Below are positions 1 to 21,182 of a stretch of 21,182 bases of DNA, in pieces (the stretch's first letter is position 1; each line of letters opens with the position of its first letter). The notes under the pieces are model-generated. The model was given only the letters and a program-made list of their open reading frames with translations. It had not been told where the DNA came from and did not search any database. This stretch comes from a virus (Duplodnaviria; Heunggongvirae; Uroviricota; Caudoviricetes). The DNA lies in IMG/VR virus record IMGVR_UViG_2734482544_000002, one strand, 5' to 3'. The position numbers and the translations under genes were made by a program.

Positions 1-3000
1 CGTCATACGCTATACCGTTAAAAATAATGGGCGGAATAATAATCTGGCGGTCAAAGTTATGATCATCGCTGATGGTGACTGTAACCGTACCGTCTGGTGT
101 TTCCGTGTTACCCCACGTACCGACTTTTTTCGGGAAGGCTTTTGATACAGCTTTAACGAAATCCCCTCTGACCTGGGTCGCCTCCAGCATGCCCTTAATC
201 GTACAGTTCTGGTTAATCGTGACATTGTTGAGCGTTCCTGAGTTCGCATTCACACTACCACTGATATCCGCATTTTTAGCGGTCAGCTTTCCGTCTGATG
301 TCAGGGAAAATACCGGAGGACTGCCACCGCTGGTAATGGCGGGGGCTGTCAGGCGCTTCAGGAACACGTCGTTCATGAATATCTGGTTGCCCTGCGCCAC
401 AAACATCGGCGTTTCATTCCCGTTTGCCGGGTCAATAAACGCGATACGATTGGCGGCAACCAGAAACTGGCTCAGCTTGCCTTCCTCCGTGTCCTCCATG
501 CTGAGGCCAATACCCGCGACATAATGTTTGCCGTCTTTGGTCTGCTCAATTTTGACGCCCCACATCGCATTCCATTTATCGTTAGCGTCCTTCCACTCTT
601 TCGAAAACTCATCCAGTCTGCTGGCGTTATCCTCCGTCAGATCAACTTTTTCCAGCAGCTCTTTACCGAGATGGGATTCGGTTATCTTGCCTTTGAAAAA
701 ATCCAGGTAACCTTCCGCATCATCGCTCGCCCGACCGACGGCCTCCACGAATGCCGATTTGCCAACGGTGTTCACACTGCGGATATAAAAGTAATAATCA
801 TGGCCCGGTTTGATATTGATACTGGCGGCTATCCAGTACAGCCCCGCGCCAAGGTAGCGGGCTGTGGTTTCAACCTGCCTGATATCGGTAATCCGCGTTT
901 CCGAGAACCAGAACTCAAACTGTACCGTCGGATCATAAACCGCAAGATGCGGCGTGGCAGTTATCTGAAAATAGCCCGGCGTCAGCTCAATCCGCGACGG
1001 TGCTACCGGTGCGGCAATCCTGAACGATACCGACGCCGGATCGCCCTGCTGTCCCCAGGCATTTACCGCCCGGACTGTCAGCGTGTACCGTCCCAGCGCC
1101 AGTTGCGTGAAGCGGTATGTGGTTTCCGTCGTCCGGGCCGTGCTGACCAGCCGCTCACTGCCGTCATCCGCTGCCACGGTCAGGCGAAGCATAAAGCTCA
1201 CCCCCTTCACCACCTTCGGCGTGTCCCAGCGCGCCAGCACCTGATATTCCCCGCTGTCTGCGGTGACTTCGGCAGTCAGGTGCTGCACCGCTGGCGGCGT
1301 GACACCATTCACCGTGCCGCTCTGGTCGCCGTCAAAGTGCGCCCCGTTATCCACGATGGCTTCTTTTTCCGGTACATGCTGCACGGCAGTGATGGCATAC
1401 GTGCCGTCATCGTTCTCACGGATACTCACACAGCGGAACAGGCGCTGGCGCAACGTCGGCAGCTTCAGCCCCCACACGCTGTATTCAGCAACGCCGTCAG
1501 GAACACGGCTCACTTTCACCTTCACGCCGTCGGTGACGGACTGAACCTCCACGCTGACCGGATTGCCACTTCCGTCAACCAGGCTTATCAGCATGGTACC
1601 GGAGGATGGCAGCGTGATTTCACGGTCGAGCGTCAGCGTCCGGGTCTGGCTGTTTACCGCCAGCACGCGCCCGCCGATGCTGATACCCGCATAGTCATCA
1701 TCACAGATTTCAATGACATCGCCCGGCACATGGCGAAGCCCTTCTGCGCCCACGCTGAAGTCCACGGTCTGCGTTTCCAGCAGTTCTGTTTTAATCAGCC
1801 ACAGCCCGGCGCGGTGTGCCTGCCCCCGNNNNNNNNNNNNNNNNNNNNNNNNNNNNNNNNNNNNNNNNNNNNNNNNNNNNNNNNNNNNNNNNNNNNNNNN
1901 NNNNNNNNNNNNNNNNNNNNNNNNNNNNNNNNNNNNNNNNNNNNNNNNNNNNNNNNNNNNNNNNNNNNNNNNNNNNNNNNNNNNNNNNNNNNNNNNNNNN
2001 NNNNNNNNNNNNNNNNNNNNNNNNNNNNNNNNNNNNNNNNNNNNNNNNNNNNNNNNNNNNNNNNNNNNNNNNNNNNNNNNNNNNNNNNNNNNNNNNNNNN
2101 NNNNNNNNNNNNNACAGCGCATCGCCGAGCAGAAATCACTGAGCACATCCCACGCCTTGCGCTGTGTGGTCAGGTACGCATTACAGGTGATGCGCGGCTC
2201 CGTGCCGCCAAAGCCGTCCGGCACTGACTGGTCGCAGTACTGGCCGATGACATACAGCGCCCATTTGTCCACATCCGCCGCACCAAGACGTTTCCCCATG
2301 CCGTAGCGCGGGTGGGTCAGCATATCCCACAGACACCAGGCCATGTTGTTGCTGTATGCTGGTTTTAACGTTCCGTCCCAGATACCGCTGTATTGTCGCG
2401 TCTGCGGGTTATAGTTCGACGGCACCTGCAGAATGCGCCCGCGAAGATGATAATTACGACTCACCTGCTGGCTGCCGAACTGCTCCGAGTCCACCTGTAC
2501 GCCGACCAGTGCAGTGTTCGGGTAGCACTGTTTCACATCGATGATTTCGGTGTATGACGACCAGAGCGTTTTGTTCTGCAGCTGGTCTGTGGTGCTGTCC
2601 GGTGTCATCCTGCGNNNNNNNNNNNNNNNNNNNNNNNNNNNNNNNNNNNNNNNNNNNNNNNNNNNNNNNNNNNNNNNNNNNNNNNNNNNNNNNNNNNNNN
2701 NNNNNNNNNNNNNNNNNNNNNNNNNNNNNNNNNNNNNNNNNNNNNNNNNNNNNNNNNNNNNNNNNNNNNNNNNNNNNNNNNNNNNNNNNNNNNNNNNNNN
2801 NNNNNNNNNNNNNNNNNNNNNNNNNNNNNNNNNNNNNNNNNNNNNNNNNNNNNNNNNNNNNNNNACCGTCAGGAACACGGCTCACTTTTACCTTCACGCC
2901 GTCGGTGACGGACTGGACCTCCACGCTGACCGGATTCCCCTGCCCGTCAACCAGGCTTATCAGCGTGGTGCCGGAGGATGGCAGCGTGATTTCACGGTCG

Positions 3001-4520
3001 AGCGTCAGCGTCCGGGTCTGGCTGTTCACCGCCAGCACGCGCCCGCCGGTGCGGATACCGGCATAGTCATCATCGCAGATTTCAATGACATCGCCCGGTA
3101 CATGACGAAGCCCTTCAGCACCCACGCTGAAATCCACGGTCTGCGTCTCCAGCAGTTCCGTTTTAATCAGCCACAGCCCGGCGCGGTGTGCCTGCCCCCG
3201 GCTGGTACAGCCAAAGGCATCCATCTTCGTGACGTTACGACCGTAACGGACAATGGCCTGCGTATCCTCCACAAGCTCTGTCGCCGTCTCCCAGCCGTTA
3301 TCCGGGTCAATCCAGTTCACCTCAACGGCATTATGGCGGTCTTTCAGGGCGCTGAAACTGTAGCGGAACGGCGCGCCATCATCCGGCATCACCACATTAC
3401 TGCGGTTATAGGCCCACACCTTATCCGACTGTCGGTCCTGCACGAACGTCAGCGTCTGCCCGTTCCATACCGGCATACAGCGCATCGCCGAGCAGAAATC
3501 ACTGAGCACATCCCACGCCTTGCGCTGTGTGGTCAGCCAGGCATTACAGGTGATGCGCGGCTCCGTGCTGCCAAAGCCGTCCGGCACCGACTGGTCACAG
3601 TACTGGCCGATGACATACAGCGCCCATTTATCCACATCTGCCGCACCAAGACGTTTCCCCATGCCATAGCGCGGATGGGTCAGCATATCCCACAGACACC
3701 AGGCCATGTTGTTGCTGTATGCCGGTTTTAACGTTCCGTCCCAGATACCGCTGTATTGCCGCGTCTGCGGATTATAGTTCGACGGCACCTGCAGAATGCG
3801 CCCGCGAAGATGATAATTACGGCTCACCTGCTGGCTGCCGAACTGCTCCGAATCCACCTGTACGCCGACCAGTGCCGTGTTCGGGTAGCACTGTTTCACA
3901 TCGATGATTTCGGTGTATGACGACCAGAGCGTTTTGTTCTGCAGCTGGTCTGTGGTGCTGTCCGGCGTCATTCTGCGCATCCGGATATTAAACGGGCGCG
4001 GCGGCAGGTTATCCACCACCACCGAGGCCAGATACTGCGAGGTGGTTTTGCCCTTAATGGTGATGTCTTTTTCCGTCACCCAGCCACCGTTACGCTGTAT
4101 CTGAACCAGCAGGCGGACTTCCGACGGATTCCTGTCTCCCTTTGAGGTGGTTTCCACCAGTGCCTGTACACCGAAGGTAAAGCGCAGACGGTCGATGTTT
4201 GCCGACGTGATGGTCCGGGTGATCGGCGTGTCATATTTCACTTCCGTACCCAGCACCGTCTCGGAGCCGGAGGATTCAAATCCCTCCGGCGGTGACTGCT
4301 CCTGCTCACCTGCCCGGAACACCACCGTGACGCCGGAGATGTTGGTATTCCCCTCACTGTCCAGCACCGGCGTACTGTTCAGCAGCACGCTTTTTAATCC
4401 ATCCACCGGACCTTCAACCGGCCCTTCGCTGATGGCATCGATCACACTCAGCAGCTGCGTGGACTTCAGGTTGTCCTTCGCTTCGCGCGGGGTATGCCCC
4501 TTACTGCTGCCTTTACCCAT
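1..4520 (-). CDS. J: Tail tip / host-specificity protein J (central tail fibre). Partial: start codon at 4520, 3' end beyond the window start. Interrupted by two N-runs and an apparent diverged duplication.
   Basis: Track ORF 2454..4520(-) begins [44 protein letters not shown]. My own minus-strand translation of 1..1500 reads in one frame without stops (…[61 protein letters not shown]…[21 protein letters not shown]), i.e. the fibronectin-III-rich C-terminal half of a lambda-J-type protein. Gene sits downstream of I, as in lambda. Confidence 0.9.
1494..2614. repeat. Copy A of a ~1.1 kb J-internal segment (contains gap 1829..2113), diverged direct repeat of 2866..3977
   Basis: 1494..1828 aligns with 2866..3200 (offset 1372) and 2114..2614 aligns with 3477..3977 (offset 1363), with scattered substitutions (e.g. 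ctttcaccttcacgcc vs cttttaccttcacgcc; cagcatggtaccgga vs cagcgtggtgccgga). Confidence 0.85.
1829..2113. other. Assembly gap (285 N)
   Basis: Run of n in the sequence; the equivalent interval in the second copy (3201..3476) is 276 bp, so the gap length is an estimate. Confidence 0.99.
2615..2864. other. Assembly gap (250 N)
   Basis: Run of n in the sequence. Confidence 0.99.
2866..3977. repeat. Copy B of the J-internal segment, contiguous with the J N-terminal region
   Basis: See copy A; copy B is uninterrupted and in frame with the J start at 4520. Confidence 0.85.
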
Positions 4521-4580
4521 TCGTCATGCTCCATAAACGATAAAACCGCCCGGAGGCGATTTCACATAAAACATTTTGCA

Positions 4581-5252
4581 TCAGCGACCAATCACCACAA
4601 CCTGACCACCGTCCCCTTCGTCTGCCGTGCTGATCTCCTGAGATACCACACGTGACCCCACGCGCATTTCACCATACAGAACAGGCATAACATTGCCCTG
4701 GGCAACCATGTTATCCAGTGAGGAGAAATAGGTGTTCTGCTTACCGTTATCCGTTGTCTGTGTGCGGGGAGTTCTGGCTTTCGGTGCCAGCATCTGAGCC
4801 ACACCGCCGAGCACCATACTGGCACCGAGAGAAAACAGAATGCCGGTCATACCACCGGCACCAATGGCAGCCCCCCATGCTGCAAGGGTGGCTCCGGCGG
4901 TAAAGAATGATCCGGCAATGGCGGCTGCTCCCAGGACAATCTGGAATACACCACCTGACTTGGCCCCGGCGACTCTGGGAACAATATGAATCACAGCGCC
5001 GTCAGGCAGAGCCTCATGTAACTGTGCCGTTAATCCGGACGTGCTAACATCCTGCCCGGCAATACGCACCTGATACCAGCCGTCGCTCAGCTTCTGACGA
5101 AACGCAGGGAGCTGTGTGGCCATCGCCCGGATGGCTTCGGCACCCGTTTTCACACGAAGGTCGATGCGGCGGCCAAATCGTTGCAAATCCCCGTAAAGGC
5201 AGATGCGTGCCATGCCCGGTGACGCCAGAGGGAGTGTGTGCGTCGCTGCCAT
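4581..5252 (-). CDS. I: Tail assembly protein I
   Basis: 223-aa ORF, the same length as lambda gpI; overlaps the K 3' end by 103 nt as in lambda; glycine/alanine-rich C-terminal hydrophobic stretch; position between K and J. Confidence 0.88.
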   Translation of the reverse strand: MAATHTLPLASPGMARICLYGDLQRFGRRIDLRVKTGAEAIRAMATQLPAFRQKLSDGWYQVRIAGQDVSTSGLTAQLHEALPDGAVIHIVPRVAGAKSGGVFQIVLGAAAIAGSFFTAGATLAAWGAAIGAGGMTGILFSLGASMVLGGVAQMLAPKARTPRTQTTDNGKQNTYFSSLDNMVAQGNVMPVLYGEMRVGSRVVSQEISTADEGDGGQVVVIGR

Positions 5253-5893
5253 TTGTCGGTATACCTCTCTCGTTTGCTCAGTTGTTCAGGAATATGGTGC
5301 AGCAGCTCGCCGTCACCACAGTAAATGGCGGCATGATTCGGCACCGATGAACCAAAACAGCACAGCAGCACATCGCCCGGCTGCGCCGCTGACAACGGCA
5401 CCTGATACAGCCCTGTGGCCTCCAGATTATCCAGATAGAGATTCTGACCGTGACGCCACCAGTCATCCTCACGATGAAAATCCGGCATCTCAATCCCCGC
5501 CAGATGGTAAGCATCCCGGAACAGCGTGTAACAGTCCGTCACCCCGTGCTCAAAGCGCCGCCCGGTAAGATGTGGCACACAGCGGAACTTGTGAATCGCC
5601 CCCCGGCAGACCAGCCACCACGGCAAATCACTCTGCACCTGCAGCCGCCGGTCGGCCTCACTCAGCCAGGGCAGACCACCGGGGTGGCTGTGGACCAGTG
5701 CCACAATCTCACCCTGCATCTCTGCCTGCAGCCAGTCTTCCGGCGACATACGGAAATACGCCTCCGGCTCACCGGAGATATTCACGCAGGGGAAATATCT
5801 TTCCCCCTCCGGCGTTCTTACCACGAAGCCGCACGACTCCGCTGGAGCACATCGCCGGGCGTGCGCCAGAATCGCTGATTCTGTCTCTGTCAT
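5150..5893 (-). CDS. K: Tail tip assembly protein K (MPN/JAMM plus NlpC/P60 domains). Long form 247 aa; the lambda-annotated 199-aa form would start at 5746.
   Basis: JAMM-like HSHPGGLPWLSEAD (HxHx7SxxD) and downstream Cys/His (GVTDCYTL…NHAAIY) typical of NlpC/P60. Start at 5893 is 6 nt after the L stop; the internal Met (…YFRMSPEDW…) gives the 199-aa form. Confidence 0.85.
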   Translation of the reverse strand: MTETESAILAHARRCAPAESCGFVVRTPEGERYFPCVNISGEPEAYFRMSPEDWLQAEMQGEIVALVHSHPGGLPWLSEADRRLQVQSDLPWWLVCRGAIHKFRCVPHLTGRRFEHGVTDCYTLFRDAYHLAGIEMPDFHREDDWWRHGQNLYLDNLEATGLYQVPLSAAQPGDVLLCCFGSSVPNHAAIYCGDGELLHHIPEQLSKRERYTDKWQRRTHSLWRHRAWHASAFTGICNDLAAASTFV

Positions 5894-5898
5894 GGGAT

Positions 5899-6597
5899 TT
5901 ACTGCGAAAGTTTGTTAATGGAAAGGAAGCCGCCAAAGTTGCCGACGTTATTGCGAAACTTACAGCCACTCAGGCATTTGCTGCATTTATCCTTCGTGAT
6001 GTCGGACGTTGGCTGGTCATATTCATCCGCGACCGCCGGACCGTGATAACCGCACTCATCGCCGCGATAGGTCCAGGTGCAGGTGTTGGCCAGCATGATA
6101 CGTCCCGGAAAAACAGCGCCATCTGTTTCCGTCGGCGTGGACAGTACAAAAGAGGCACTCACCGCGCTCAGTTCGCTGCACTGCTCAATGCGCCAGCGGC
6201 TGATCACCTCCTGCTCCGGATCGGCGTCACTGTTTCCGTTGACGAAGTTCACCGCATCCAGAAAACGGGCGTAAACCTTACGCCGGACCACCGTTCCGCC
6301 GACCAGACTCTGTAGATCTTCCGCCATCCCGGTGACCATACCGTACAGGTTAGAAACCATCAGCGTGGGGCGCGTACTGGTGCCTTTGCCATTCAGTTCA
6401 AAACCACTCCCCTGAATGGGATACGGCTGATACTGTCGCCCCTGCCAGGTGACCGGCTCACCTTTTTCGTTCTGCTCATTACAGAAAAAATAACGTTCTC
6501 CACCGACCTCTGTCAGATCGATTTCCCAGAGCACCACGCTGGCCGACTGCTCCGCACGGGTGCATTCATTCAGTGTTTCCTGCCGGATATCCTGCAT
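5899..6597 (-). CDS. L: Tail tip assembly protein L
   Basis: 232-aa ORF, the same length as lambda gpL; start codon overlaps the M stop by 1 nt; cysteine-rich C-terminus (CSKCLSGCKFRNN) consistent with the Fe-S cluster motif of gpL. Confidence 0.88.
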   Translation of the reverse strand: MQDIRQETLNECTRAEQSASVVLWEIDLTEVGGERYFFCNEQNEKGEPVTWQGRQYQPYPIQGSGFELNGKGTSTRPTLMVSNLYGMVTGMAEDLQSLVGGTVVRRKVYARFLDAVNFVNGNSDADPEQEVISRWRIEQCSELSAVSASFVLSTPTETDGAVFPGRIMLANTCTWTYRGDECGYHGPAVADEYDQPTSDITKDKCSKCLSGCKFRNNVGNFGGFLSINKLSQ

Positions 6598-6926
6598 CAG
6601 TTCACCACCTGTTCAAACTCTGCGCTGAACTCAACACGCAGCATACTGACCCGCGACGACCATTTTGCGCAGGTCACCTTTATCTGCCGCCACTCATAAG
6701 GCGGCGTCCACAGAAAGGCTTTCCAGCCCCCGTGCTCTTCCAGAAACGACTCCAGTACCATGGCCTCCTCACGGGGGACAGAAAGCGTCACGCTGTACGT
6801 TTTCAGGTTGGCATTCAGCCCGGCAGGCGCTCGCTGGGAATAGCCATCACCAAAGCGCACCTTTCTTACAGAAGGGGCCGAAGCCACATCCATACCGGGT
6901 TTCACTTTCCAGCGGAAGGTTTTCAT
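6597..6926 (-). CDS. M: Tail tip assembly protein M
   Basis: 109-aa ORF, the same length as lambda gpM; ATGA overlap with the H stop; position between H and L. Confidence 0.88.
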   Translation of the reverse strand: MKTFRWKVKPGMDVASAPSVRKVRFGDGYSQRAPAGLNANLKTYSVTLSVPREEAMVLESFLEEHGGWKAFLWTPPYEWRQIKVTCAKWSSRVSMLRVEFSAEFEQVVN

Positions 6927-9484
6927 CGTCCACCTCCGGAGAACAGGCCACCATCACGCATCTGTGTCTGAATTTCATCACGGGCACCCTTGCGGGCCAT
7001 GTCATACACGGCCTTCATCATCTGTGGACCTGGCAGACCATTCGTACCGTCGTTCTGAATCACCACGTGATTGTTCTGATTAAAATTAATGCCTTCAGCC
7101 CGCCGCATCTGCGCCGGACTTCCGGCACCGCCCACATAACCACCTTCCGCATAGCCGCGCATCAGCCGGTAGAGATTCCCCACGCCAATCCGGCTGGTTG
7201 CCTCCTTCGTGAAGACAAATTCACCACGGTGAACAATCCCCGCTGGCTCATATTTGCCGCCGGTTCCCGTAAATCCCCCGGTTGCAAAATGGAATTTCAC
7301 CGCAGCGGCCTGAATGGCTGTACCACCTGACGCGGATGCGCCGCCACCAACAGCCCCGCCAATGGCGCTGCCGATACTCCCGACAATCCCCACCATTGCC
7401 TGCTTAAGCAGAATTTCTGTCATCATGGACAGCACGGAGCGGGTGAAGCTGCGCCAGTTCTGTTCACTGCCGGTCAGCATCGCCGCCATATTCTGTGCAA
7501 TACCATCAAAGGTCTGCGTGGCTGCACTTTTAACCTGTGACATACTGTCCGTGGCGCTCTCTTCCCACTCACTCCAGCCGGACTTCAGGCCTGCCATCCA
7601 GCTCCCGCGAAGCTGGTCTTCAGCCGCCCAGGTCTTTTTCTGCTCTGACATGACGTTATTCAGCGCCAGAGGATTATCGCCATACTGTTCCTTCAGGCGC
7701 TGTTCCGTGGCTTCCCGCGCTGCCTGCCGGTCAGTCAGCCCCCGGTTTTTCGCATCAATGGCTGCCCGTTTTGCCCGTTGCTGCTGTGCGAATTTATCCG
7801 CCTGCTGCGCCAGCGCATTCAGGTGCTCCTGATACGTAACCTTGTCACCAAGTGCAGCCAGCTGGCGTTTGTACTCCAGCGTCTCGTCTTTATGCGCCAG
7901 CAGGGATTTCTCCTGTGCGGACAGCTGGCGACGTTGTGCCGCCTCCTCCAGTACCGCGAACTGACTTTCTGCCTTCCACAAATCCCGGCGCTGCTGGCTG
8001 ATTTTCTCATTCGCTCCGGCATGCTTCTCCAGCGTCCGGAGTTCTGCCTGAAGCGTCAGCAGGGCCGCATGAGCACTGTCTTCCTGACGATCGCCCGCAT
8101 ACACCTTCACGCCGGACTGTTTCGGCTTTTTCAGCGTCGCTTCATAATCCTTTTTCGCCGCCGCCATCAGCGTGTTGTAATCTGCCTGCAGGATTTTTCC
8201 GTCTTTCAGTGCCTTGTTCAGTTCTTCCTGACGGGCGGTATATTTCTCCAGCGGCGTCTGCAGCCGTTCGTAAGCCTTCTGCGCCTCTTCGGTATATTTC
8301 AGCCGTGACGCTTCGGTATCGCTCTGCTGCTGCGCATTTTTGTCCTGTTGACGCTGTTGATCTACCCTCTTTTGGGCTGCATCCCGCTCCAGGCGTTTTT
8401 TTTCACGATCATCCCAGTAACGCGCCCGTGCTTCATCGTTAACGAAATAATCATCCTTGCGCAGATTCCAGATGTCGTCTGCTTTCTTAAACGCAGCCTC
8501 TGCCTTAATCAGCATCTCCTGCGCGGTATCAGGACGACCAATATCCAGCACCGCATCCCACATGGATTTGAATGCACGTGCAGTCCTGTCTGCCCAGGTC
8601 TCCAGCGTGCCCATGTTCTCTTTCAGGCGGCGGGTCTGGTCATCAAACCCTTTCGTTGCGGCCTCGTTCGCCGCCTGCAATGCCCCGGCTTCATCGCCGG
8701 AACGCTGCAACTGAGCAACATACGCAATCTGCTCCGCCGTCACGTTATGGAACTGGCGTGCCATCGCCGTCAGCCCCGACGTCGGGTCTGTGGTCAGCTT
8801 CCCGAAGGCTTCAGCGACCTTGTCCACCTCCACGCCGGATGCATAGGAGAAACGCGCCACACTCTGGCTGATGGACGCAATCTGAGCCTCACCGCTTACC
8901 CCCGCCTTAACCAGTGCGCTGAGTGACTCGCTGGTCTGGTTAAACGTCAGCCCTGCCGCCTGCCCGGCTCTGGACAGGACCAGCATACGATCTGCCGTCA
9001 GTCCCGCCTGATTACCGGAAAGGACCAGCGTTTTGTTGAAATCGGACAGGGTTGAGTTGCCCTGATACCAGGCATACGCCAGCGCACCGGTCGCCACCGC
9101 CAGCGAGGTGGCCCCCACCATCGGCAGGGTGATCGCGCCGGCAAGCCCCCTGAACATGGGGATCATCCCGCCGAAGGAGTCCTTAACCTGACCACCCTGT
9201 TGCAGCAGGATCAGCCAGGGATTCTGCCCCCCTGCAAGCTGCGTGGCCACGTCGGTGAACTGTGCAGGCAGCATACGCATGGCGGCTTTATACTGCCCGA
9301 CGGAAATCCCCGCTTTCTGTGCAGCCAGCGCCTGTCGGCTCAGCGACTGTTCAACGACTGCCGCTGTTTTTTTCGCATCACTTTCCGTACCGGAAAAATG
9401 ACGCCTGACTCTGGCCATCTGCTCGTCAAATCTGGCCGCATCCAGACTCAAATCAACGACCAGATCGCCTACCGGTTCAGCCAT
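6923..9484 (-). CDS. H: Tail tape measure protein H
   Basis: 853-aa ORF, the same length as lambda gpH; long Ala/Gln/Glu/Lys-rich coiled-coil-like central region; glycine-rich hydrophobic segment near the C-terminus; position after G/T. Confidence 0.92.
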   Translation of the reverse strand: MAEPVGDLVVDLSLDAARFDEQMARVRRHFSGTESDAKKTAAVVEQSLSRQALAAQKAGISVGQYKAAMRMLPAQFTDVATQLAGGQNPWLILLQQGGQVKDSFGGMIPMFRGLAGAITLPMVGATSLAVATGALAYAWYQGNSTLSDFNKTLVLSGNQAGLTADRMLVLSRAGQAAGLTFNQTSESLSALVKAGVSGEAQIASISQSVARFSYASGVEVDKVAEAFGKLTTDPTSGLTAMARQFHNVTAEQIAYVAQLQRSGDEAGALQAANEAATKGFDDQTRRLKENMGTLETWADRTARAFKSMWDAVLDIGRPDTAQEMLIKAEAAFKKADDIWNLRKDDYFVNDEARARYWDDREKKRLERDAAQKRVDQQRQQDKNAQQQSDTEASRLKYTEEAQKAYERLQTPLEKYTARQEELNKALKDGKILQADYNTLMAAAKKDYEATLKKPKQSGVKVYAGDRQEDSAHAALLTLQAELRTLEKHAGANEKISQQRRDLWKAESQFAVLEEAAQRRQLSAQEKSLLAHKDETLEYKRQLAALGDKVTYQEHLNALAQQADKFAQQQRAKRAAIDAKNRGLTDRQAAREATEQRLKEQYGDNPLALNNVMSEQKKTWAAEDQLRGSWMAGLKSGWSEWEESATDSMSQVKSAATQTFDGIAQNMAAMLTGSEQNWRSFTRSVLSMMTEILLKQAMVGIVGSIGSAIGGAVGGGASASGGTAIQAAAVKFHFATGGFTGTGGKYEPAGIVHRGEFVFTKEATSRIGVGNLYRLMRGYAEGGYVGGAGSPAQMRRAEGINFNQNNHVVIQNDGTNGLPGPQMMKAVYDMARKGARDEIQTQMRDGGLFSGGGR

Positions 9485-9911
9485 ACCGGACTCCTCCTGC
9501 GATCCCTTCTGATACTGTCATCAGCATTACGTCATCCTCCGTCATGTCCGCCACATCCGGGGAAGCGGGGATAACTTCATTCCCGTCCGGGCCAAAGCGG
9601 ACACCTCCGGCAAGCCCTGCCGCTTTCTGCATCAGCACATCATCTTCAGGCTCTTCGTCAGCCTCGCGCCGGTTCAGCAGACTGAAATCCAGCGGATGCA
9701 TCTCCGGATCGCTGAAAAACAGGCTGAGCACGGTGTACGTCAGCCCGGAAAAGTGCATATCCAGCAGAACATCATGAAAATAATGGGTACTGTAAAAGCG
9801 GTGCCAGTCGGCATACTCCGTGGATGACATCCCGGCAAGCATGGCGCGCCAGTCGGGTCGCCCCATCTCACGCGCCAGTTTCAGGGCAAAACTCAGCTCA
9901 CCGTCGAACAC
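9477..9911 (-). CDS. T: T reading frame, expressed only as the G-T fusion by -1 programmed frameshift (tail assembly chaperone)
   Basis: 144-aa ORF overlapping the G 3' end in the -1 frame; slippery GGGAAAG lies at the G/T overlap; overlaps the H start by 8 nt. Confidence 0.85.
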   Translation of the reverse strand: MFDGELSFALKLAREMGRPDWRAMLAGMSSTEYADWHRFYSTHYFHDVLLDMHFSGLTYTVLSLFFSDPEMHPLDFSLLNRREADEEPEDDVLMQKAAGLAGGVRFGPDGNEVIPASPDVADMTEDDVMLMTVSEGIAGGVRYG

Positions 9912-10315
9912 TTTCCCGCAGAAACAGGCTCTGCAGGCCCGGCGTCCTCTGCCTGTTCAGGAGCATCATTCACCACAAACTCATACATACCGGACAGCCG
10001 GTACACCACGTTTTCAGCATGAGAAATTGCCTCTGTGGGCCAGGTGGTAAGCACTTCCTGCTCAATCTGTTTAACGGCTTCATTCATGGACGGCATCTGC
10101 GTCTTCTTCGGATGGTTATGCCACAGGGACATCGCAACCACAAAAGCGCCGGTTCTGATGGCGTCTTCCACAGTAAACTTCCGGTTGCTGTCTGACTCCG
10201 CCTGTTCTGCCTGCCGTTTCATCAGGTCGAGATGCTCAATACGCTGCAGGGCTGACAGTTCAGAAAGCGTGACGGTCACACCGTTATGTTCAAATGATTC
10301 GGTTTTCAGGAACAT
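9893..10315 (-). CDS. G: Tail assembly chaperone G
   Basis: 140-aa ORF, the same length as lambda gpG; C-terminus …SAGKCSTVS* encoded across the GGGAAAG heptamer. Confidence 0.88.
   Translation of the reverse strand: MFLKTESFEHNGVTVTLSELSALQRIEHLDLMKRQAEQAESDSNRKFTVEDAIRTGAFVVAMSLWHNHPKKTQMPSMNEAVKQIEQEVLTTWPTEAISHAENVVYRLSGMYEFVVNDAPEQAEDAGPAEPVSAGKCSTVS
9911..9917 (-). promoter_or_regulatory. Programmed -1 ribosomal frameshift slippery heptamer (G GGA AAG) for G-T
   Basis: Plus strand ctttccc at 9911..9917 is GGGAAAG on the minus strand, 18 nt before the G stop; the -1 frame continues into the T ORF. Confidence 0.8.
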
Positions 10316-10330
10316 CGCTGACTCTCCGGA

Positions 10331-11071
10331 TTAACTGGCGGTGACGTTGATTTCTGCAACCGCAGCAAACTCACCATTACCAGATACGACCGGAATGTTG
10401 ACCTTGCCTGCAGCAACACCTTTCACGGTGATGGTCATACCACTGACCGACACGGTGGCTTTTGTTTTATCCGCAGACACCGCACGGAAGCTCTTGTCGG
10501 TTGCGCCATCCGGCTGGAATGCCACGGTCAGCGTGGTGCTCTGCCCTTTCACTACGGAAGCACTGGCGGGTGTCACCGTCATGCCGGTCGTCGCCGTCAC
10601 CGTGCTGCGATCTTCTGCCATCGACGGACGTCCCACATTGGTGACCTTCACCGTGCGGGTAATCACCTCCTTCGCCGTCACCGCCTTACCGATACTGCTG
10701 ACCCAGCCACGGAACACATCGACCGTGCCGTTCGGGAAGCGGATTTTATAGGCACGGGTATCACCTTCATTAAACCACGCCAGCAGCGCCTGCTGCCCCT
10801 GCTCTCCGGGCATCCACGCCAGCGTGAAGCTGGTATCTCCGGCAGATTTCTGCCCCTGCCCGGTCGCAGTCCAGTCTGCATCTTCATCATCGAGATAGCT
10901 GTCGTCATAGGACTCAGCGGTCAGTTCGCCGGGCGTCAGGTCTTTAACTTTTGCCAGACGCGACCAGTCAACGTCTGAAAGCGGGTTCGCATAAGGGTCA
11001 CCGCTCCCCTTATAAACCCACAGGGTGGTCCCGGCACCTTTCACCGGCATTGTAGGATTTGGTACAGGCAT
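10331..11071 (-). CDS. V: Major tail tube protein V, with C-terminal Ig-like (Big_2) domain
   Basis: Track ORF is 256 aa from 11101; the start at Met11 ([22 protein letters not shown]…) gives 246 aa as in lambda V and lies 7 nt after the U stop. C-terminal …[18 protein letters not shown]. Confidence 0.9.
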
Positions 11072-11078
11072 AGCGTCC

Positions 11079-11474
11079 TCACATTTCATAGATAATGACA
11101 TAAGTCAGATCGGCTGAACTCCACAGGCCCGCATCATCGTCGCGCCGGTAGTCATAGCCGCTGGCCACCATACTGGTGATCAAATCTGACAGTGCCGGGA
11201 TATCGCTCATCACAGGATAAATCCGGGACTCCATCCACGAATCCAGCTCTGAATCCGGCACCTGAGCAGGCAGGAAAACTTCAATATGCAGCTCCGCCTG
11301 CCAGGTATCGCTGTCCAGCTCTTCGCCCGTGTATTCAGCGCCGGTGAGATAAACGGCAATTGCCGGAAAATCTTCCTCATCAAAAACAGCGGGGCGACCA
11401 TCAAAAAGCGTCGCCCCGGTGTCATGCTTCTCCAGTGCATCCAGTACGGCTGCACGGAGTTCAGTATGTTTCAT
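11079..11474 (-). CDS. U: Tail terminator protein U
   Basis: 131-aa ORF, the same length as lambda gpU; ATGA overlap with Z; position between Z and V. Confidence 0.88.
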
Positions 11475-12049
11475 CGCTTTATTACCATTCTCAGTTGATG
11501 CTGCAGCGCATAGCCCAGCTCTTTCGGAAGACGTTCACGCCGTATCCGTTCAATATTCTGTTTAAACGCCGTGGTCAGCGGCACCGCCATCGGGATTTTC
11601 ACCACATCAATGGGGTAACGGTTTTTCCCGGCCACACGCTGCATAACATGCCACCGGCCGTTTTTCAGTTGCTGAATAAACGCGCCGGGAATACGACGGT
11701 TACCCACCACAAGCACGCTGCCGCCACCTTTCAGGGATGAACGCTGCCCCTTTTTATGACGCCTGCGGCGGGACAGGACAACCCGCGCATTACCCAGCTT
11801 GATTACGGGCAAATCCCCCCGGTTAACTTTGATTCTGGCCTGCGGATTTTTGACCGTGGCCCTTTTCAGCCTGGCCCTTTCCTTTACCAGTTTCCGGCGT
11901 ACCTTTGTCTCACGGGCAACCTGTGACGCAGACTGCGATATCGCGGATGAAGCAACGCGGTTAATGGCCATTGCGGCGGCACCGGGCACCGCCGTTTTGC
12001 TGATACGGCTGAGGTTTTCAACGGCCTGCTCAAGACCTTTTATGGCCAT
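11471..12049 (-). CDS. Z: Tail completion protein Z
   Basis: 192-aa ORF, the same length as lambda gpZ; position between FII and U. Confidence 0.85.
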   Translation of the reverse strand: MAIKGLEQAVENLSRISKTAVPGAAAMAINRVASSAISQSASQVARETKVRRKLVKERARLKRATVKNPQARIKVNRGDLPVIKLGNARVVLSRRRRHKKGQRSSLKGGGSVLVVGNRRIPGAFIQQLKNGRWHVMQRVAGKNRYPIDVVKIPMAVPLTTAFKQNIERIRRERLPKELGYALQHQLRMVIKR

Positions 12050-12060
12050 ACATCCCCCTT

Positions 12061-12414
12061 TCAGCGGCGACGGTTAACGGCAGGCGGTACGCCCCGTCCA
12101 AGCCAGAGATGACAACTTCCGCCATCATCCGGCGAAACCCGATCTACCCAGAAATTTTCCTCACCGATGGTCAGCGTGTCTCCACGCCGCAGCTGCCGCA
12201 CCTCATCAGTCCGGACAAACAGGGACGGGCTGGAGCCTTCAACGCGCACGCCCTGTCCGGCATAGCTGATATTTTCAGGGTCATCAAAAACACCACGTAT
12301 CACCGCACCTGACTGCTCACCGGATGTCATGGTGGCTGACGTTCCCATGTACCCGCGTATCGTTTCATCGGCGCGGGCAATGGCAGCATCGAACAGGTTA
12401 TCGAAATCAGCCAC
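12061..12414 (-). CDS. FII: Head-tail connector (head completion) protein FII
   Basis: 117-aa ORF, the same length as lambda gpFII; position after FI. Confidence 0.85.
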   Translation of the reverse strand: MADFDNLFDAAIARADETIRGYMGTSATMTSGEQSGAVIRGVFDDPENISYAGQGVRVEGSSPSLFVRTDEVRQLRRGDTLTIGEENFWVDRVSPDDGGSCHLWLGRGVPPAVNRRR

Positions 12415-12425
12415 AGCGCCTCCCG

Positions 12426-12824
12426 TTATTGCATTCTGGCCAGGCCGCGCTCTGTCATTTCGGCTGCCACACCGGCAGAGACACGAAACGCCGTTCCCGG
12501 CAGCACAAATGCCACAGGTTTATCCCGCGTGGCGTGAAGTGCATCAGTATGCAGCGTCACCAGTGCCACGACCGTGACCAGTTCAGCCGTATCCTGAATC
12601 ACGGTATCCGGCTGCGCTGATACCACCTCATTTTCATGCCCGGTCAGCACATTTTCCCGGCTGAGAGGGGTGTCCTGACCGGCAGTTTCATCCGTGTCAT
12701 CAAGCTCTTCTTCCAGCTCTGCCACACGAAGCGCCAGTTCTTCTTTCGTTCCCGTCAAACTGACATCGCGGTTCAATTGCTCACCCAGCTCCTGAAGACG
12801 GGCAATCAGTTCATCTTTCGTCAT
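12426..12824 (-). CDS. FI: DNA packaging protein FI
   Basis: Track ORF is 145 aa from 12863; the start at MTKDELIARLQELGEQLNRD… gives 132 aa and sits 41 nt after the E stop, as in lambda. Confidence 0.82.
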   Translation of the reverse strand: MTKDELIARLQELGEQLNRDVSLTGTKEELALRVAELEEELDDTDETAGQDTPLSRENVLTGHENEVVSAQPDTVIQDTAELVTVVALVTLHTDALHATRDKPVAFVLPGTAFRVSAGVAAEMTERGLARMQ

Positions 12825-12865
12825 GAACTCCTCCACAGAGAGAAAATGGCCCCGAAGGGCCATGA

Positions 12866-13891
12866 TTACGCCAGTTGAACGGACACGAACTCATCAGGAT
12901 CAGCCAGCAGCATCAGCGGTGCTGACTGAATCATGGTGAACTCACGCGCCGGATCGCCGGTGGTCACCCAGTTTTTCGGGTAACGGGCAGAAGCGTTAAT
13001 GCCTTCGCGCTGTGCGTCCGCATCCTGAATGCAGCCATAGGTGCGCAGACCGCGAGCCTGAGTGTTCCCCAGCACCATCGTGTTGTCCGGCAGGAAGTTC
13101 TTTTTGACGCCGTTTTCCACGTACTGTCCGGAATACACGACGATGGCCACATCGCCATACATTCCCTTATAGGACACCGCTTTGCCCAGGTCTTTTACCG
13201 CTGTCTCCAGCTCGGAATGAGAGCCGCGACGGGTATCCAGCTTCTCCTTGACGGCTTTGAAGGAACGGAACAGCGCCCAGCCTTTCGGGTCAAACACGAT
13301 GATATTCACCACACCGCTGGCGTTCAGCGCGTAGGCTTCGATATCGTCGGTCGGGTCATACGTGGACTTGTCACGCTTGCTCCACTCCGTGACGCCGGAC
13401 TGTGTGATGTTGTTCGCCGCACTGCGGCCCATATCCACCTCAACCGGATCGAAGGCTTCACCGGTCATGGTGTATTTGCCCTTGAGCACGGCAGAAACTG
13501 CCTGCATCTCTTCGACCTGAGCAATGGCCAGCTCTTCGTCACGCATGTTCTGCATGATGATGCGACGGCGGCGGTAAGCCGGGTCCGCCAGATTCTGCGG
13601 ATCTTCATCCGGCAGGCGACGCAGGGTCATCTGCGGATTCACCTCATGCTTGGGTTTGACATATCCCGGCGTAAATTCAGAGGTGGAGCCGCCACGGGAA
13701 CGGATAACCTCACCGGAAACAATCGGCGAAACGTACAGCGCCATGTTTACCAGTCCCGGAATTTGTGAGAGATAGACTTTCTCCGTAGTGAAGGGATAGC
13801 TCTCACGGAAAAAGAGACGCAGAAACAGCGGATCAAACTTAAATTTCTGCTCATTTGCCGCCAGCAGCTGGGCGGTTGTGTACATCGACAT
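12866..13891 (-). CDS. E: Major capsid protein E (HK97-like fold)
   Basis: Track ORF is 350 aa; the internal start MSMYTTAQLLAANEQKFKFDPLFLRLFFRESYPF… gives 341 aa and is recognisably lambda gpE. Confidence 0.93.
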   Translation of the reverse strand: MSMYTTAQLLAANEQKFKFDPLFLRLFFRESYPFTTEKVYLSQIPGLVNMALYVSPIVSGEVIRSRGGSTSEFTPGYVKPKHEVNPQMTLRRLPDEDPQNLADPAYRRRRIIMQNMRDEELAIAQVEEMQAVSAVLKGKYTMTGEAFDPVEVDMGRSAANNITQSGVTEWSKRDKSTYDPTDDIEAYALNASGVVNIIVFDPKGWALFRSFKAVKEKLDTRRGSHSELETAVKDLGKAVSYKGMYGDVAIVVYSGQYVENGVKKNFLPDNTMVLGNTQARGLRTYGCIQDADAQREGINASARYPKNWVTTGDPAREFTMIQSAPLMLLADPDEFVSVQLA

Positions 13892-13946
13892 AAAAAAATC
13901 CCGTAAAAAAAGCCACACAGGCGGCCTTTAGTGATGAAGGGTAAAG

Positions 13947-14279
13947 TTAAACGATGCTGATTGCCGTTCCGGCAAACACGGTCCGTTTTTTCGTCTCGTC
14001 GCTGGCAGCCTCCGGCCAGAGCACATCCTCATAACGGAACGTGCCGGACTTGTAGAACGTCAGTGTGGTGCTGGTCTGGTCAGCAGCAACCGCAAGAATG
14101 CCAACGGCAGCACCGTCGGTGGTGCCATCCCACGCAACCAGCTTACGGGTGGAGGTGTCCAGCATCAGCGGGGTCATTGCAGGCGCTTTCGCACTCAATC
14201 CGCCGGGCGCGGTTGCGGTATGAGCCGGGTCACTATTGCCCAGCGGCTGGTAATGGGTAAAGGTTTCTTTGCTCGTCAT
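13947..14279 (-). CDS. D: Capsid decoration protein D
   Basis: [41 protein letters not shown]…, 110 aa from the second Met; recognisably lambda gpD. Confidence 0.93.
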
Positions 14280-14288
14280 AAACATCCC

Positions 14289-14894
14289 TTACACTGGTGT
14301 GTTCAGCAAATCGTTAACGGCATCAGATGCCGGGTTACCTGCAGCCAGCGGTGCCGGTGCCCCCTGCATCAGACGATCCAGCGCAGTGTCACTGCGCGTC
14401 TGTGCACTCTGTGGTGCTGCGGCCAGAATACGGCGGGCCGTTTCCACGGTCATACCGGGGGTTTCGGCCAGCACGCGTGCCTGTTCTTCGCGTCCGTGAG
14501 CCTCCTCACAGTTGAGGATCCCCATAATGCGACTGTTTTCTGCCGCAACCGCTGCGGTGATCTGCGCGTTCACGTCCGGCTGCGCCGCGCTGGCGTTCTC
14601 GCCCTCCGTCGCTTGCACCACGCCAGTAACGTCAGCCTGCGAAGCAGTGGCTGAAACAGTTGTTGATTGAGTCTCTTTGGTCATTCGCCCTCCTGAGAGA
14701 CGGGATTTACGTGCATCCAGTGCATCACGCATGACGGTGATCGCATCGGTACTGTTAACAAGTTCATCAGCCAGTCCGGCATCAATGGCCTCCTGACCGC
14801 TGTACACTGCAGCCTCGGTATCCAGCACAGCCTGCACGGACAGGCCGGTATATGCCGACACCTTCTGTGCAAACATCCGGCGGGTTGCATCCAT
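14289..14894 (-). CDS. Nu3: Scaffolding protein Nu3, nested in-frame in the 3' third of C
   Basis: In-frame Met at residue 284 of the track ORF (…QSR-MDATRRMFAQKVSAYTG…) gives a 201-aa product sharing the C stop, matching the lambda C/Nu3 arrangement. Confidence 0.7.
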   Translation of the reverse strand: MDATRRMFAQKVSAYTGLSVQAVLDTEAAVYSGQEAIDAGLADELVNSTDAITVMRDALDARKSRLSGGRMTKETQSTTVSATASQADVTGVVQATEGENASAAQPDVNAQITAAVAAENSRIMGILNCEEAHGREEQARVLAETPGMTVETARRILAAAPQSAQTRSDTALDRLMQGAPAPLAAGNPASDAVNDLLNTPV

Positions 14895-15588
14895 CCGGGA
14901 CTGCAATGTTTCCCGGACATCATCCGGTAGATGGCTGTAGGGGTTGCCATCCACCTTATGGCTGCCGCTGTAAATCAGCGTGATTTCCACGCCCTGTTTC
15001 TCCAGTGCAGCGCCGTAATTACTGTGAGCCATCATGACGCCGATGGAGCCTGTCCGGGCGGTCTGCGTGACCAGACGCCGGGAGGCGGCACTGGCAAGCA
15101 GCTGACCTGCGCTGCAGTTCATGTCATTGGCCAGCGCCCATACCGGCTTTATGTCACGCACACGGGCGATGATGTCAGCGCAGTCAAATGCTCCCGCCAC
15201 CATTCCGCCCGGTGTGTCCATATCGAGCAGAATGCCGTCCACCATCGGGTCGCTGGCAGCCTGTTGCAGACGGGCGATAATGCCGTTGTAACCGGTCATC
15301 CCCGAGTACGGCTGCAGCGCCCGCGTCCGGCTGACCAGCGTGCCGGACACCGGCAGCACGGCGATGCCGTTCATTACCTGATAACTGCGGGCCTGTCGTG
15401 GTCCGTCATCATCACCGGATAACGCCAGCGCCGCGGGTGCCTCTCCGGCAGTCAGGCTGTCGCCGGATACTGCATCCGTCAGGCAGCTGATCCCAAGCTG
15501 GCCTGCAAGCGCACAAAAGAAAACCCGCGCATAGGCGGGTTCAAGCATCAGCGGCTCATTAAAAGCCATGCTGGCAATATGCGGGAGA

Positions 15589-15608
<20 letters not shown>
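14289..15608 (-). CDS. C: Head protease / minor capsid protein C (S49/ClpP-like serine protease), likely GTG start
   Basis: Track ORF is 484 aa from 15743; a start at codon 46 (V, GTG; …VTAELRNLPHIASMAFNEPLML…) gives 439 aa and a 20-nt overlap with the B stop, as in lambda. S49-peptidase-like core (…DTPGGMVAGAFD…). Confidence 0.88.
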
Positions 15609-19289
<3,681 letters not shown>

Positions 19290-19315
<26 letters not shown>

Positions 19316-19835
19316 TCAGCAACCCCGGTATCAGTTCATCCAGCGCGGCTGCTTTGTTCATGGCTTTGATGATATCCCGTTTCAGGAAATCAACATGTCG
19401 GTTTTCCAGTTCCGGAAAACGCCGCTGCACCGACAGGGGGATCCCGTCGAGAATACTGGCAATTTCACCTGCGATCCGCGACAGCACGAAAGTACAGAAT
19501 GCGGTTTCCACCACTTCAGCGGAGTCTCTGGCATTTTTCAGCTCCTGTGCGTCGGCCTGCGCACGCGTAAGTCGATGGCGTTCGTACTCAATAGTCCCTG
19601 GCTGGAGATCTGTCTCGCTGGCCTGCCGCAGTTCTTCAACTTCCCGGCGCAGCTTTTCGTTCTCAATTTCAGCATCCCTTTCGGCATACCATCTTATAAC
19701 GGCGGCAGAGTCATAAAGCACCTCATTACCCTTGCCACCGCCTCGCAGAACGGGCATTCCCTGTTCCTGCCAGTTCTGAATGGTACGGATACTCGCACCG
19801 AAAATGTCAGCCAGCTGCTTTTTGTTGACTTCCAT
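19290..19835 (-). CDS. Nu1: Terminase small subunit Nu1 (winged-HTH cosB-binding)
   Basis: 181 aa, MEVNKKQLADIFGASIRTIQNWQEQGMPVLRGGGKGNEVLYDSAAVI…; first gene after cos. Confidence 0.93.
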
Positions 19836-20012
19836 TGTTCATTCCACGGACAAAAACAGAGAAAGGAAACGACAGAGGCCAAAAAGCCCGTTTTCAGCAC
19901 CTGTCGTTTCCTTTCTTTTCAGGGGGTGTTTTAAATAAAAACATTAGGTTACGGCGAAGAAGAACGGAAACGCCTTAAACCGGAAAATTGTCATAAATAG
20001 CGAAAACCCGCG
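19836..20012 (-). promoter_or_regulatory. cosB region (Nu1 R-sites and IHF-binding region) between cosN and the Nu1 start
   Basis: Reverse complement reads …CGCGGGTTTTCGCTATTTATGACAATTTTCCGGTTTAAGGCGTTTCCGTTCTTCTTCG…, closely resembling the lambda left-end cosB sequence as I recall it. Confidence 0.7.
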
Positions 20013-20024
20013 CGCCTTCCGCCC
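20013..20024 (-). other. Putative cosN core (position of the 12-nt cohesive end), uncut in the prophage
   Basis: Minus strand reads CGACAGGTTACG|GGGCGGAAGGCG|CGCGGGTTTTCGC. Flanks match lambda cos, but the 12-mer differs from canonical GGGCGGCGACCT in its last 6 nt. Confidence 0.55.
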
Positions 20025-20223
20025 CGTAACCTGTCGGATCGCCGGAAAGGACCCGCAAAATGATAATAATTATCATCTACATGTCACAACGTGCATCTAC
20101 GCCATCAAACCACGTCAAATAATCAATTATGACGCAGGTATCGTATTAATTGATCTGCATCAACTTAACGTAAAAACAACTTCAGACAATACAAATCAGC
20201 GACACTGAATACAGGGCAACCTC

Positions 20224-20457
20224 ATGTCAACGAAGAACAGAACCCGCAGAACAACAACCCGCAACATCCGCTTTCCTAACCAAATGATTGAACAAATTAA
20301 CATCGCTCTTGTTCAAAAAGGGTCCGGGAATTTCTCAGCCTGGGTCATTGAAGCCTGCCGCCGGAGACTGTGCTCAGAAAAAAGAGTTTCGCCTGAAGCA
20401 AACAAAGAAAAGAGTGACATTACTGAATTGCTCAGAAAACAGGTTAGACCAGATTGA
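20224..20457 (+). CDS. Small ribbon-helix-helix-like DNA-binding protein (77 aa), antisense to the late operon
   Basis: MSTKNRTRRTTTRNIRFPNQMIEQINIALVQKGSGNFSAWVIEACRRRL…: basic N-terminal tail, a short beta-strand (RNIRFP), helix, G-x-G/S turn, second helix, the Arc/MetJ/CopG pattern. Possibly the DUF3950 (YlcI/YnfO-like) family of lambdoid prophages; family assignment is from memory. Confidence 0.6.
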   Translation: MSTKNRTRRTTTRNIRFPNQMIEQINIALVQKGSGNFSAWVIEACRRRLCSEKRVSPEANKEKSDITELLRKQVRPD

Positions 20458-20499
20458 AGCAATTTAGATAATCGTGCAGACTACGCCCCCTCATATCAC

Positions 20500-20925: not shown

Positions 20926-20933
20926 ATCATAAC

Positions 20934-20962
20934 GTCCGGTTTCTTCCGTGCCAGAACCGGAC
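20934..20962 (+). terminator. Stem-loop (8-bp stem gtccggtt/aaccggac, 13-nt loop) 9 nt after the stop of ORF 20500..20925
   Basis: Perfect inverted repeat in the sequence. No downstream T-run, so not a canonical intrinsic terminator; it could be a processing or regulatory hairpin. Confidence 0.3.
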
Positions 20963-21182
20963 TCGCTGGCATGATGAAATATGTGTACCCGGTAACCCCG
21001 GTGTGCATCGTTTTTGATTATTCCCGCACACTCGCGCAGAAGGAGTTCCCCGTCGGGCTACGGTCTCTGTTAATACGGGAATACGGCGACGATTGGATTT
21101 GCCCCTATATTTCCAGACATCTGTTATCACTTAACCCATTACAAGCCCGCTGCCGCAGATATTCCCGTGGCGAGCGATAACC

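Follow-up and report, generated by a model that had tools for sequence, protein, structure and literature searches.

The J region and its two gaps

The window (i.e., the whole stretch of 21,182 nt that was analysed, from the IMG/VR virus record IMGVR_UViG_2734482544_000002) carries a lambda-like morphogenesis operon on the minus strand, ending in the gene for the host-range determinant J. Using the list of open reading frames (ORFs) in the window together with the gene calls and Pfam families of the near-identical contig L049, we annotated the operon genes at 4521..21182 as I, K, L, M, H, T/G, V, U, Z, FII, FI, E, D, C, B, W, A and Nu1; the cos region of the window aligns with lambda bases 1..200. 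Within the tail operon (H-M-L-K-I-J), J follows I, as given by the ORF order, by the Lambda_tail_I family at 4581..5252 and by the L049 gene calls. It starts with an ATG at 4520 (minus strand). Exactly two runs of N were found in the window, 1829..2113 (285 N) and 2615..2864 (250 N), and they split the J region into three contig blocks, which we will henceforth refer to as X, Y and Z. The features of the region, with the two J alleles distinguished below labelled 'a' and 'b', are as follows:

1..1828, minus strand: block X, 3' part of J allele 'a', codons ~441-1049 of a J of ~1137 aa; exits the window at its left end
1494..1828, minus strand: repeat copy A1, the portion of X that overlaps Z in J coordinates, aa 441-552
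1829..2113, no strand: 285-N gap within allele 'a'
2114..2614, minus strand: block Y, which is also repeat copy A2, 501 bp, J allele 'a' aa 182-348
2615..2864, no strand: 250-N gap, join of the allele 'a' fragments to the allele 'b' contig
2865..4520, minus strand: J part of block Z, J allele 'b' codons 1-552
2866..3200 and 3477..3977, minus strand: repeat copies B1 and B2, both inside Z
3160..3536, minus strand: 377-bp run identical in alleles a and b, assembled once only, in Z
4521..21182, minus strand: rest of block Z, lambda-like head and tail operon and cos region, with two small plus-strand ORFs

The initial annotation had described a diverged direct repeat of ~1.1 kb inside J, with non-identical copies and some substitutions that alter residues, and our alignments bore out both observations. 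Specifically, 1494..1828 matches 2866..3200 at 314/335 positions (93.7%; offset 1372) and 2114..2614 matches 3477..3977 at 483/501 positions (96.4%; offset 1363). Both alignments are gapless, the copies are separated by 285 and 250 N, and their similarity far exceeds chance. Where the 285 N stand, the other copy has 276 real bases (3201..3476), which accounts for the difference of 9 between the offsets. At the protein level, VDGQGNP and SSGTTLISL occur in the copy that starts at 2866, and VDGSGNP and SSGTMLISL in the copy that starts at 1494. In total 36 codons differ between the copies, of which 30 are synonymous, meaning that both copies derive from functional genes. As written, J would be about 4.8 kb long, as had been proposed; the repeat is not what carries it out of the window, as J exits at position 1 either way, about 88 codons short of the stop of an X-type J.

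One explanation of this arrangement is that part of J (aa 182-552) has truly been duplicated in tandem, by unequal recombination between two prophage J alleles, giving a longer tail-tip protein. The direct order of the copies on one scaffold and the predominance of synonymous differences would both fit such an event, which we nevertheless consider very improbable. Its junction would be concealed within the 250 N, where the sequence is interrupted, and the limits of the repeat are all contig ends (the end of X at 1828, the entire Y at 2114..2614 and the start of Z at 2865). The reading frame bears on the same question in two ways. Across the 285 N, X and Y share one frame, which counts in favour of a duplication; by contrast, the 250-N join breaks the frame by shifting Y and X by +1 relative to Z, and the ORF that begins with the ATG at 4520 ends at 2454. 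Equivalently, each offset (1363 and 1372) leaves a remainder of 1 on division by 3, so the frame is not kept through both copies, although this is a weak test because the N lengths are estimates.

Two J alleles in three blocks

To assign the blocks to alleles, we compared each of them with J genes elsewhere. X is a single open frame of 609 codons and is 99.95% identical to the N-free contig L035, in which the ORF runs 88 codons further to a stop and this type of J is present as a single copy; each complete-genome J that we fetched gave one colinear match to X. Y is an open frame of exactly 167 codons, identical at 501/501 positions to the J of E. coli NCTC9082, strain 181.1, L014 and L040. The J of NCTC9082 also matches copy A1 at 334/335 positions, with 276 bp between the two matches, while the copies in Z match it at only 93.4% and 96.4%. 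Another draft, L014, holds the flanks of the gap between X and Y at 100% identity, again with 276 bp between them. On these sequence matches we assign X and Y to the same J allele ('a'), distinct from that of Z ('b').

An ungapped comparison of allele a (from L014) with allele b (from L033 and Z) gave 74 mismatches in 1781 positions and one identical run of 377 bp, the sole long identical run between the alleles. This run contains the 285-N gap: it takes in the 276 bp that allele a lacks, together with 41 bp at the end of X and 60 bp at the start of Y. We read the position of the gap as the signature of a collapsed repeat, and its true length, judging by L014 and NCTC9082, is most likely 276 bp. 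Unlike at the 285-N gap, we found no long run of identity between a and b at the left end of Z (2865) or at the right end of Y (2614), and it is possible that a third J allele or low coverage caused these two breaks. For the 250-N gap, the comparisons strongly support a false join of the allele a fragments to the allele b contig, and in the contiguous relatives examined we found nothing between these J segments.

The lengths of the N runs have to be read with caution. In a sibling draft (L050), runs of 250 N stand for 251 and 242 real bases and, taken together with the 285 N that replace 276 bases, this indicates approximate gaps whose lengths do not identify the scaffolder software. An alternative is that the Ns mask real, uninterrupted sequence of exactly those lengths, such that the repeat is truly in the record. 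Some stretches of a public collection are described as N-masked, and 285 and 250 are non-standard lengths for a placeholder; even so, we find this scarcely credible, since the exact lengths would frameshift the gene and would set X and Y 285 bp apart instead of the 276 bp seen in all relatives. Moreover, a mask would have no reason to coincide with the only long run identical in a and b, and the runs in the sibling draft behave as approximate gaps.

Single-copy J in relatives and the repeated segment

We then looked for the undivided form of the Z-type gene. Many complete E. coli genomes match the Z operon at 97-98% identity. At only ~97% identity to Z, complete RefSeq E. coli genomes are too distant to stand in for this prophage. 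A better proxy came from looking up the exact H protein: the closed chromosome CP104423.1, which is 99.964% identical to Z over 16,620 bp. Its prophage carries one intact J ORF of 1165 aa, with no N, and Z encodes exactly the first 552 aa of that protein. The exact 1165-aa protein is found on at least 1000 contigs under the record name host specificity protein J [Shigella sonnei] (it is from the names given to this J protein that we take the organism label for CP104423.1). A J of 1165 aa is likewise encoded by five viral contigs that lack N and share 99.0-99.9% identity with Z. A single-copy J in the same prophage of a closed genome and on so many contigs argues against a genuine duplication.

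The sequence that follows the end of Z was the same in all Z-type relatives (11/11, two of which showed 3 to 6 differences), and it differs from X at 59/840 positions; at the protein level, X shares only 82% identity with this true continuation of the J of Z. The initial annotation had implied that the locus would collapse into one J of 3.4 kb, and this does not follow: X and Y come from a different J gene than Z, and therefore even a collapsed J would be a chimera here. As L035, L004 and L037 show, J alleles are mosaic, and the 3' partner of Z in this strain is therefore taken from near-identical relatives rather than observed. On that basis, the true J of this prophage, including the 3' part that follows Z in this strain, would be an ordinary 1165-aa protein of the Shigella sonnei type.

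To see whether a doubled J segment occurs elsewhere, we searched aa 182-552 against 1.84 billion representative proteins and inspected the best 150 of 7188 matches. Four representatives among these 150 had two matched stretches. Two of them (P0116 and P0142) are 43% and 47% identical to the query; the other two (P0001 and P0002) are the only close J relatives with two stretches among the best 150 of 7188, and both come from draft scaffolds in which every extra copy begins right after a single-N join. Duplicated aa 182-552 in an N-free close relative of J was not found among the best 150 of 7188 matches; in that set, all close relatives that carry the piece twice are N-joined, which again speaks against a genuine duplication. 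At the nucleotide level, neither allele-specific 52-mers searched against viral_contigs nor a two-allele degenerate 52-mer searched against genome_contigs gave any record with two matches ~1.37 kb apart without N. In the complete-genome J genes examined, each block was present once and in colinear order in all.

The domain content of the repeated segment points the same way. In an intact Z-type J (L033/L049, 1165 aa) the order of Pfam families is FNIII-A_GpJ, Phage-tail_3, Ig_J, Ig_J_second, Phage_Tail_Tip and Ig_GpJ_C, and Z, Y and X each match the expected part of this gpJ series: Z has FNIII-A_GpJ at 86-207 and Phage-tail_3 at 330-498, while X has the end of Phage-tail_3, Ig_J, Ig_J_second, Phage_Tail_Tip and the start of Ig_GpJ_C. 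The repeated unit (aa 182-552) contains the last 26 residues of FNIII-A and the entire Phage-tail_3 hub domain, and it ignores domain boundaries in that it begins 26 residues before the end of FNIII-A. It had been suggested that a duplication would add fibronectin-III-like repeats to the fibre; the repeated piece is instead the core of the hub, and the Ig/FN3-like domains (610-818) lie outside it. An intact relative aligns with the solved lambda J (8iyk_J) at E = 0, query residues 1-836 to chain residues 1-836. A genuine duplication would thus cut FNIII-A and double the Phage-tail_3 hub core in a region that otherwise aligns one to one with lambda J, and a J with a doubled hub core would probably not assemble. 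Were the scaffold order right, for which we see hardly any chance, J would be a recombinant tail-tip protein of ~1500 aa carrying the hub segment aa 182-552 twice, once from each prophage allele.

We further compared the locus with lambda gpJ (PDB 8iyk and related entries). The intact relatives share with it the full series of domains, the one-to-one alignment over 1-836 and the position of the gene after I. The window differs in that it contains fragments only: from a 1165-aa J it has aa 1-552, and from a second J of ~1137 aa it has aa 182-348 and aa 441-1049.

Origin of the repeat and its consequences

Considering this, we put the probability at roughly 0.94 that the J repeat is a false duplication produced by assembly and scaffolding, in which partial contigs of two J genes were strung across N gaps. 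The initial annotation had left a scaffolding artefact and a real tandem duplication side by side without ranking them; the three-block anatomy and the single-copy relatives favour the former, and the out-of-frame 250-N join and the single-copy 1165-aa J count against the latter. Its warning that the J model in this window is unreliable holds, as J appears to be strung together from pieces of two genes.

The arrangement could have come about as follows. At least two closely related J genes of the lambda type would have been present in the sequenced material. The assembler would have failed to thread reads through them, because the alleles are 94-96% alike with perfectly identical stretches, and so would have left three contigs. 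Contig Z would comprise the whole morphogenesis operon and codons 1-552 of the allele b J, contig Y codons 182-348 of the allele a J, and contig X codons 441-1049 of the allele a J. The scaffolder may have joined X to Y rightly, across a gap that stands for a/b-identical sequence already used once, in Z, and may then have misplaced the X-Y pair beside Z. Overlapping parts of two genes would thus lie head to tail and resemble a diverged tandem repeat. The specific assembler or scaffolder step behind the join of Y to Z is one that we infer from this anatomy.

Similar artefacts are known. In the heterotype false duplications described by the Vertebrate Genomes Project (Ko et al. 2022, PMC9516828), diverged versions of a locus likewise sit on separate contigs that are placed in tandem with a gap, a better assembly of the locus lacks the duplication, and a false gene model results; a gap between the copies is listed among the published marks of false duplication (PMC9516828). 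Our case differs in that the bacterial genome is haploid: the versions in the window most likely represent paralogous J genes from different prophages, not the two haplotypes of a diploid. A further parallel is found in short-read drafts of STEC and Shigella, in which several near-identical lambdoid prophages break contigs within phage genes; that homogeneous lambdoid prophages disrupt short-read assemblies is known (PMC7175801). As in the window, the public drafts L006, L014, L021, L022, L029, L031, L046 and L047 contain J pieces that overlap and are joined by N; the N runs of the window are longer than in such drafts, and otherwise we found no substantive difference.

As to the source of the two alleles, these most likely belong to two separate lambdoid prophages within a single Shigella or E. 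coli genome. Alternatively, the same artefact may have drawn on J alleles from two strains or subpopulations (in a mixed culture or a metagenome), with allelic contigs scaffolded in tandem. Diverged copies flanking gaps have the same anatomy as a heterotype false duplication, which agrees with a two-strain source; however, we hold such a source to be unlikely, given that multiple J copies per genome are the rule (the median number of J-like copies per E. coli genome is 2-3, with up to 14). Alleles a and b also occur together, 100% identical to the blocks of the window, in at least two other entries (L014/L039 and L006/L037) that are apparently isolate drafts. Finally, X and Z's own 3' part differ by 28 aa in length and in 18% of residues, so that different prophages fit better than strain variants of a single prophage.

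On the artefact reading, whichever the source, the repeat is not a real feature, and its value lies only in a warning about quality. A gene caller run on the scaffold would return either a chimeric ORF of 688 codons with a run of X residues or an apparent gene expansion. When host range is typed, or expansions of tail domains are counted, from draft assemblies, J models that span N runs should therefore be discarded. The same artefact has already yielded false "duplicated J" proteins in public catalogues (P0001 and P0002), and it has left J as chains of pieces in viral contigs of IMG/VR: single Ns link overlapping parts of J in 6 further IMG/VR contigs (8 loci), and two of these six contigs carry alleles a and b together.

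Layout of the repeat and its reading frame

The window contains exactly two runs of Ns, at 1829..2113 (285 N) and 2615..2864 (250 N), which separate three blocks:

Block X: 1..1828
Block Y: 2114..2614 (501 bp)
Block Z: 2865..21182

J, the lambda-type tail-tip and host-range gene, lies on the minus strand with its start ATG at 4520. Ungapped alignment bore out the diverged direct repeat that the initial annotation had described within J: X 1494..1828 matched Z 2866..3200 at 314 of 335 positions (93.7%), and the entire Y matched Z 3477..3977 at 483 of 501 (96.4%). The offsets of the two copies (1372 for X and 1363 for Y) differ by 9 because the 285 N occupy the place of 276 bases in Z. The residue substitutions quoted between the copies were confirmed. 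The two copies differ in 36 codons, and 30 of these changes are synonymous, meaning that both come from genes under selection and not from sequencing noise.

The limits of the repeat coincide with contig ends (2865 is the first base of Z, the repeat takes in all of Y, and the X copy stops at the last base of X). In one copy or the other, each limit is thus the place where a contig breaks off, a pattern which is a product of assembly and not of duplication. In codons of J, Z covers 1-552, Y 182-348 and X 441-1049. Across the 285 N, X and Y share one frame, and the 250 N shift both by +1 relative to Z, so that the ORF from 4520, as written, ends at 2454.

Two alleles of J

Each block matched once, and colinearly, in every complete-genome J fetched. 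In the J of E. coli NCTC9082, 334/335 positions agree with X 1494..1828 and 501/501 with Y, and the two segments lie 276 bp apart; its identity to the corresponding stretches of Z is only 93.4% and 96.4%. The IMG/VR contig L014 shows the same spacing of 276 bp and matches both X 924..1828 and Y at 100%. X and Y, about 276 bp apart, thus form one coherent allele (allele a), for which 285 N is a nearly correct gap estimate. A contig free of N, L035 (99.95% identity to X), carries X-type J as a single copy of approximately 1137 aa. Compared with X and Y, several relatives (L035, L037 and strain 181.1) have mosaic J alleles: L035 combines its X-type 3' part with a 5' segment whose identity to Y is only 97.1%, while strain 181.1, whose J has 1232 aa, matches Y at 100% and X at only about 92%. 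Prophage J genes thus appear to recombine frequently.

The J encoded by Z (allele b) has intact relatives. The H protein of the window has exact copies in thousands of assemblies; one of these is the closed, N-free chromosome CP104423.1, in which 16,620 bp align with Z at 99.964% identity. Its J is a single intact ORF of 1165 aa, and the identical protein occurs on at least 1000 contigs under the record name host specificity protein J [Shigella sonnei]. The first 552 residues are exactly those encoded by Z, with five synonymous nucleotide differences. These, the only differences between the J of the closed genome and the part of it in the window, cluster in 79 bp (window 4116..4194; J nt 327-405), which could mean that a short tract was gene-converted or that two alleles were merged into one consensus. 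Five N-free viral contigs, 99.0-99.9% identical to Z, have the same 1165-aa ORF. Beyond the left end of Z, all 11 Z-type relatives share one sequence (two with 3 to 6 differences); between this continuation and X, 59 of 840 positions differ, and at the protein level the two share only 82% identity and are 28 residues apart in length. On the evidence of these near-identical relatives, the common 1165-aa Shigella sonnei-type protein is the true J of the prophage.

Aligned without gaps, allele a (L014) and allele b (Z and its relative L033) showed 74 mismatches over 1781 positions and only one long stretch without any mismatch, the 377 bp at 3160..3536 in Z. This run comprises exactly the 276 bases absent from allele a, the last 41 of X and the first 60 of Y. 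This segment, common to both alleles, was assembled a single time, in Z, and a hole remained in the path of allele a. The 285-N gap is thus a textbook collapsed repeat, an explanation that covers this gap and not the end of Z at 2865 or that of Y at 2614. Complete E. coli genomes carry a median of 2-3 J copies (maximum 14), and homogeneous lambdoid prophages are known to fragment short-read assemblies (PMC7175801). The same prophage in another, sibling draft (CWWG01000057.1) has runs of exactly 250 N at 15478..15727, in the same J, and at 20406..20655, in the tail-fibre gene downstream. The real sequence at these two places is 251 and 242 bases long, so the runs are approximate gaps, and 250 N seems to recur as an approximate gap length in assemblies of this type.

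Of the two origins initially proposed for the repeat, a scaffolding artefact joining two J alleles is the one that held, with X and Y matching one allele and Z another. A real in-frame tandem duplication is not supported, given the frame break at the 250 N as written and the single-copy J of closed CP104423.1, and we regard a genuine duplication of J as very improbable. The repeat as observed is confirmed, and as a duplication it is not a real feature: what the window contains is pieces of two ordinary J genes, and a single J collapsed from it would still be a chimera. In false duplications as published, a sequence is present in diverged versions that were scaffolded in tandem with a gap between them, a doubling that better assemblies lack (PMC9516828); the repeat fits this description, except that the versions there were haplotypes and here are most probably paralogous prophage genes.

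Searches for duplicated J proteins

A search of 1.84 billion representative proteins with the repeated segment (aa 182-552) as query gave 7188 hits. A full-length J with a duplicated aa 182-552, which would rank top, was absent from the best 150 of these. Among the same 150, the only close J relatives (at least 92% identical) matched in two stretches were P0001 (662 aa) and P0002 (457 aa), and the distant hits so matched were P0116 (43% identical) and P0142 (47%). P0001 and P0002 come from the NCBI draft scaffolds WXHL01000062.1 and WXMW01000062.1, respectively, where every extra J copy starts directly after a single-N join; in WXHL01000062.1 the M gene is also present three times. Public catalogues thus contain false 'duplicated J' proteins, predicted from drafts in which partial J alleles were joined by single Ns.

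Overlapping J fragments chained by single Ns were found in six further IMG/VR contigs (eight loci), which appear to derive from isolate drafts; the IMG/VR UViGs L006, L014, L021, L022, L029, L031, L037 and L039 have two to four such fragments. Alleles a and b both occur, at 100% identity to the window blocks, in IMGVR_UViG_2693429679_000007 and IMGVR_UViG_2700989365_000006, which makes two prophages of a single genome a likelier source than a mixed sample.

Domain content and the cos region

Pfam domains of intact J (residues)
FNIII-A_GpJ: 86-207
Phage-tail_3: 330-498
Ig_J: 610-714
Ig_J_second: 718-818
Phage_Tail_Tip: 872-1000
Ig_GpJ_C: 1029-1164

The proposal that a duplication had added fibronectin-III-like repeats to the fibre does not agree with these coordinates: the repeated piece (182-552) covers only the final 26 residues of FNIII-A, together with the hub domain, and the Ig/FN3-like modules lie outside it. 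Residues 1-836 of lambda J, for which a structure has been solved, align one-to-one with the protein here. A doubled J core is not a modular repeat addition, and a J containing one would be unlikely to assemble.

Lambda bases 1..200 align closely with the cos region of the window, but where lambda has its cohesive end GGGCGGCGACCT, the 12-mer in the window (20013..20024, minus strand) is GGGCGGAAGGCG, with 5 of 12 bases differing. Beyond cos lie two small ORFs, on the strand opposite to the morphogenesis operon:

20224..20457, plus strand: matches DUF3950
20500..20925, plus strand: matches DUF1398, in visibly A+T-rich sequence

Small ORFs of this kind are typically accessory genes, located close to the prophage ends in lambdoid phages.
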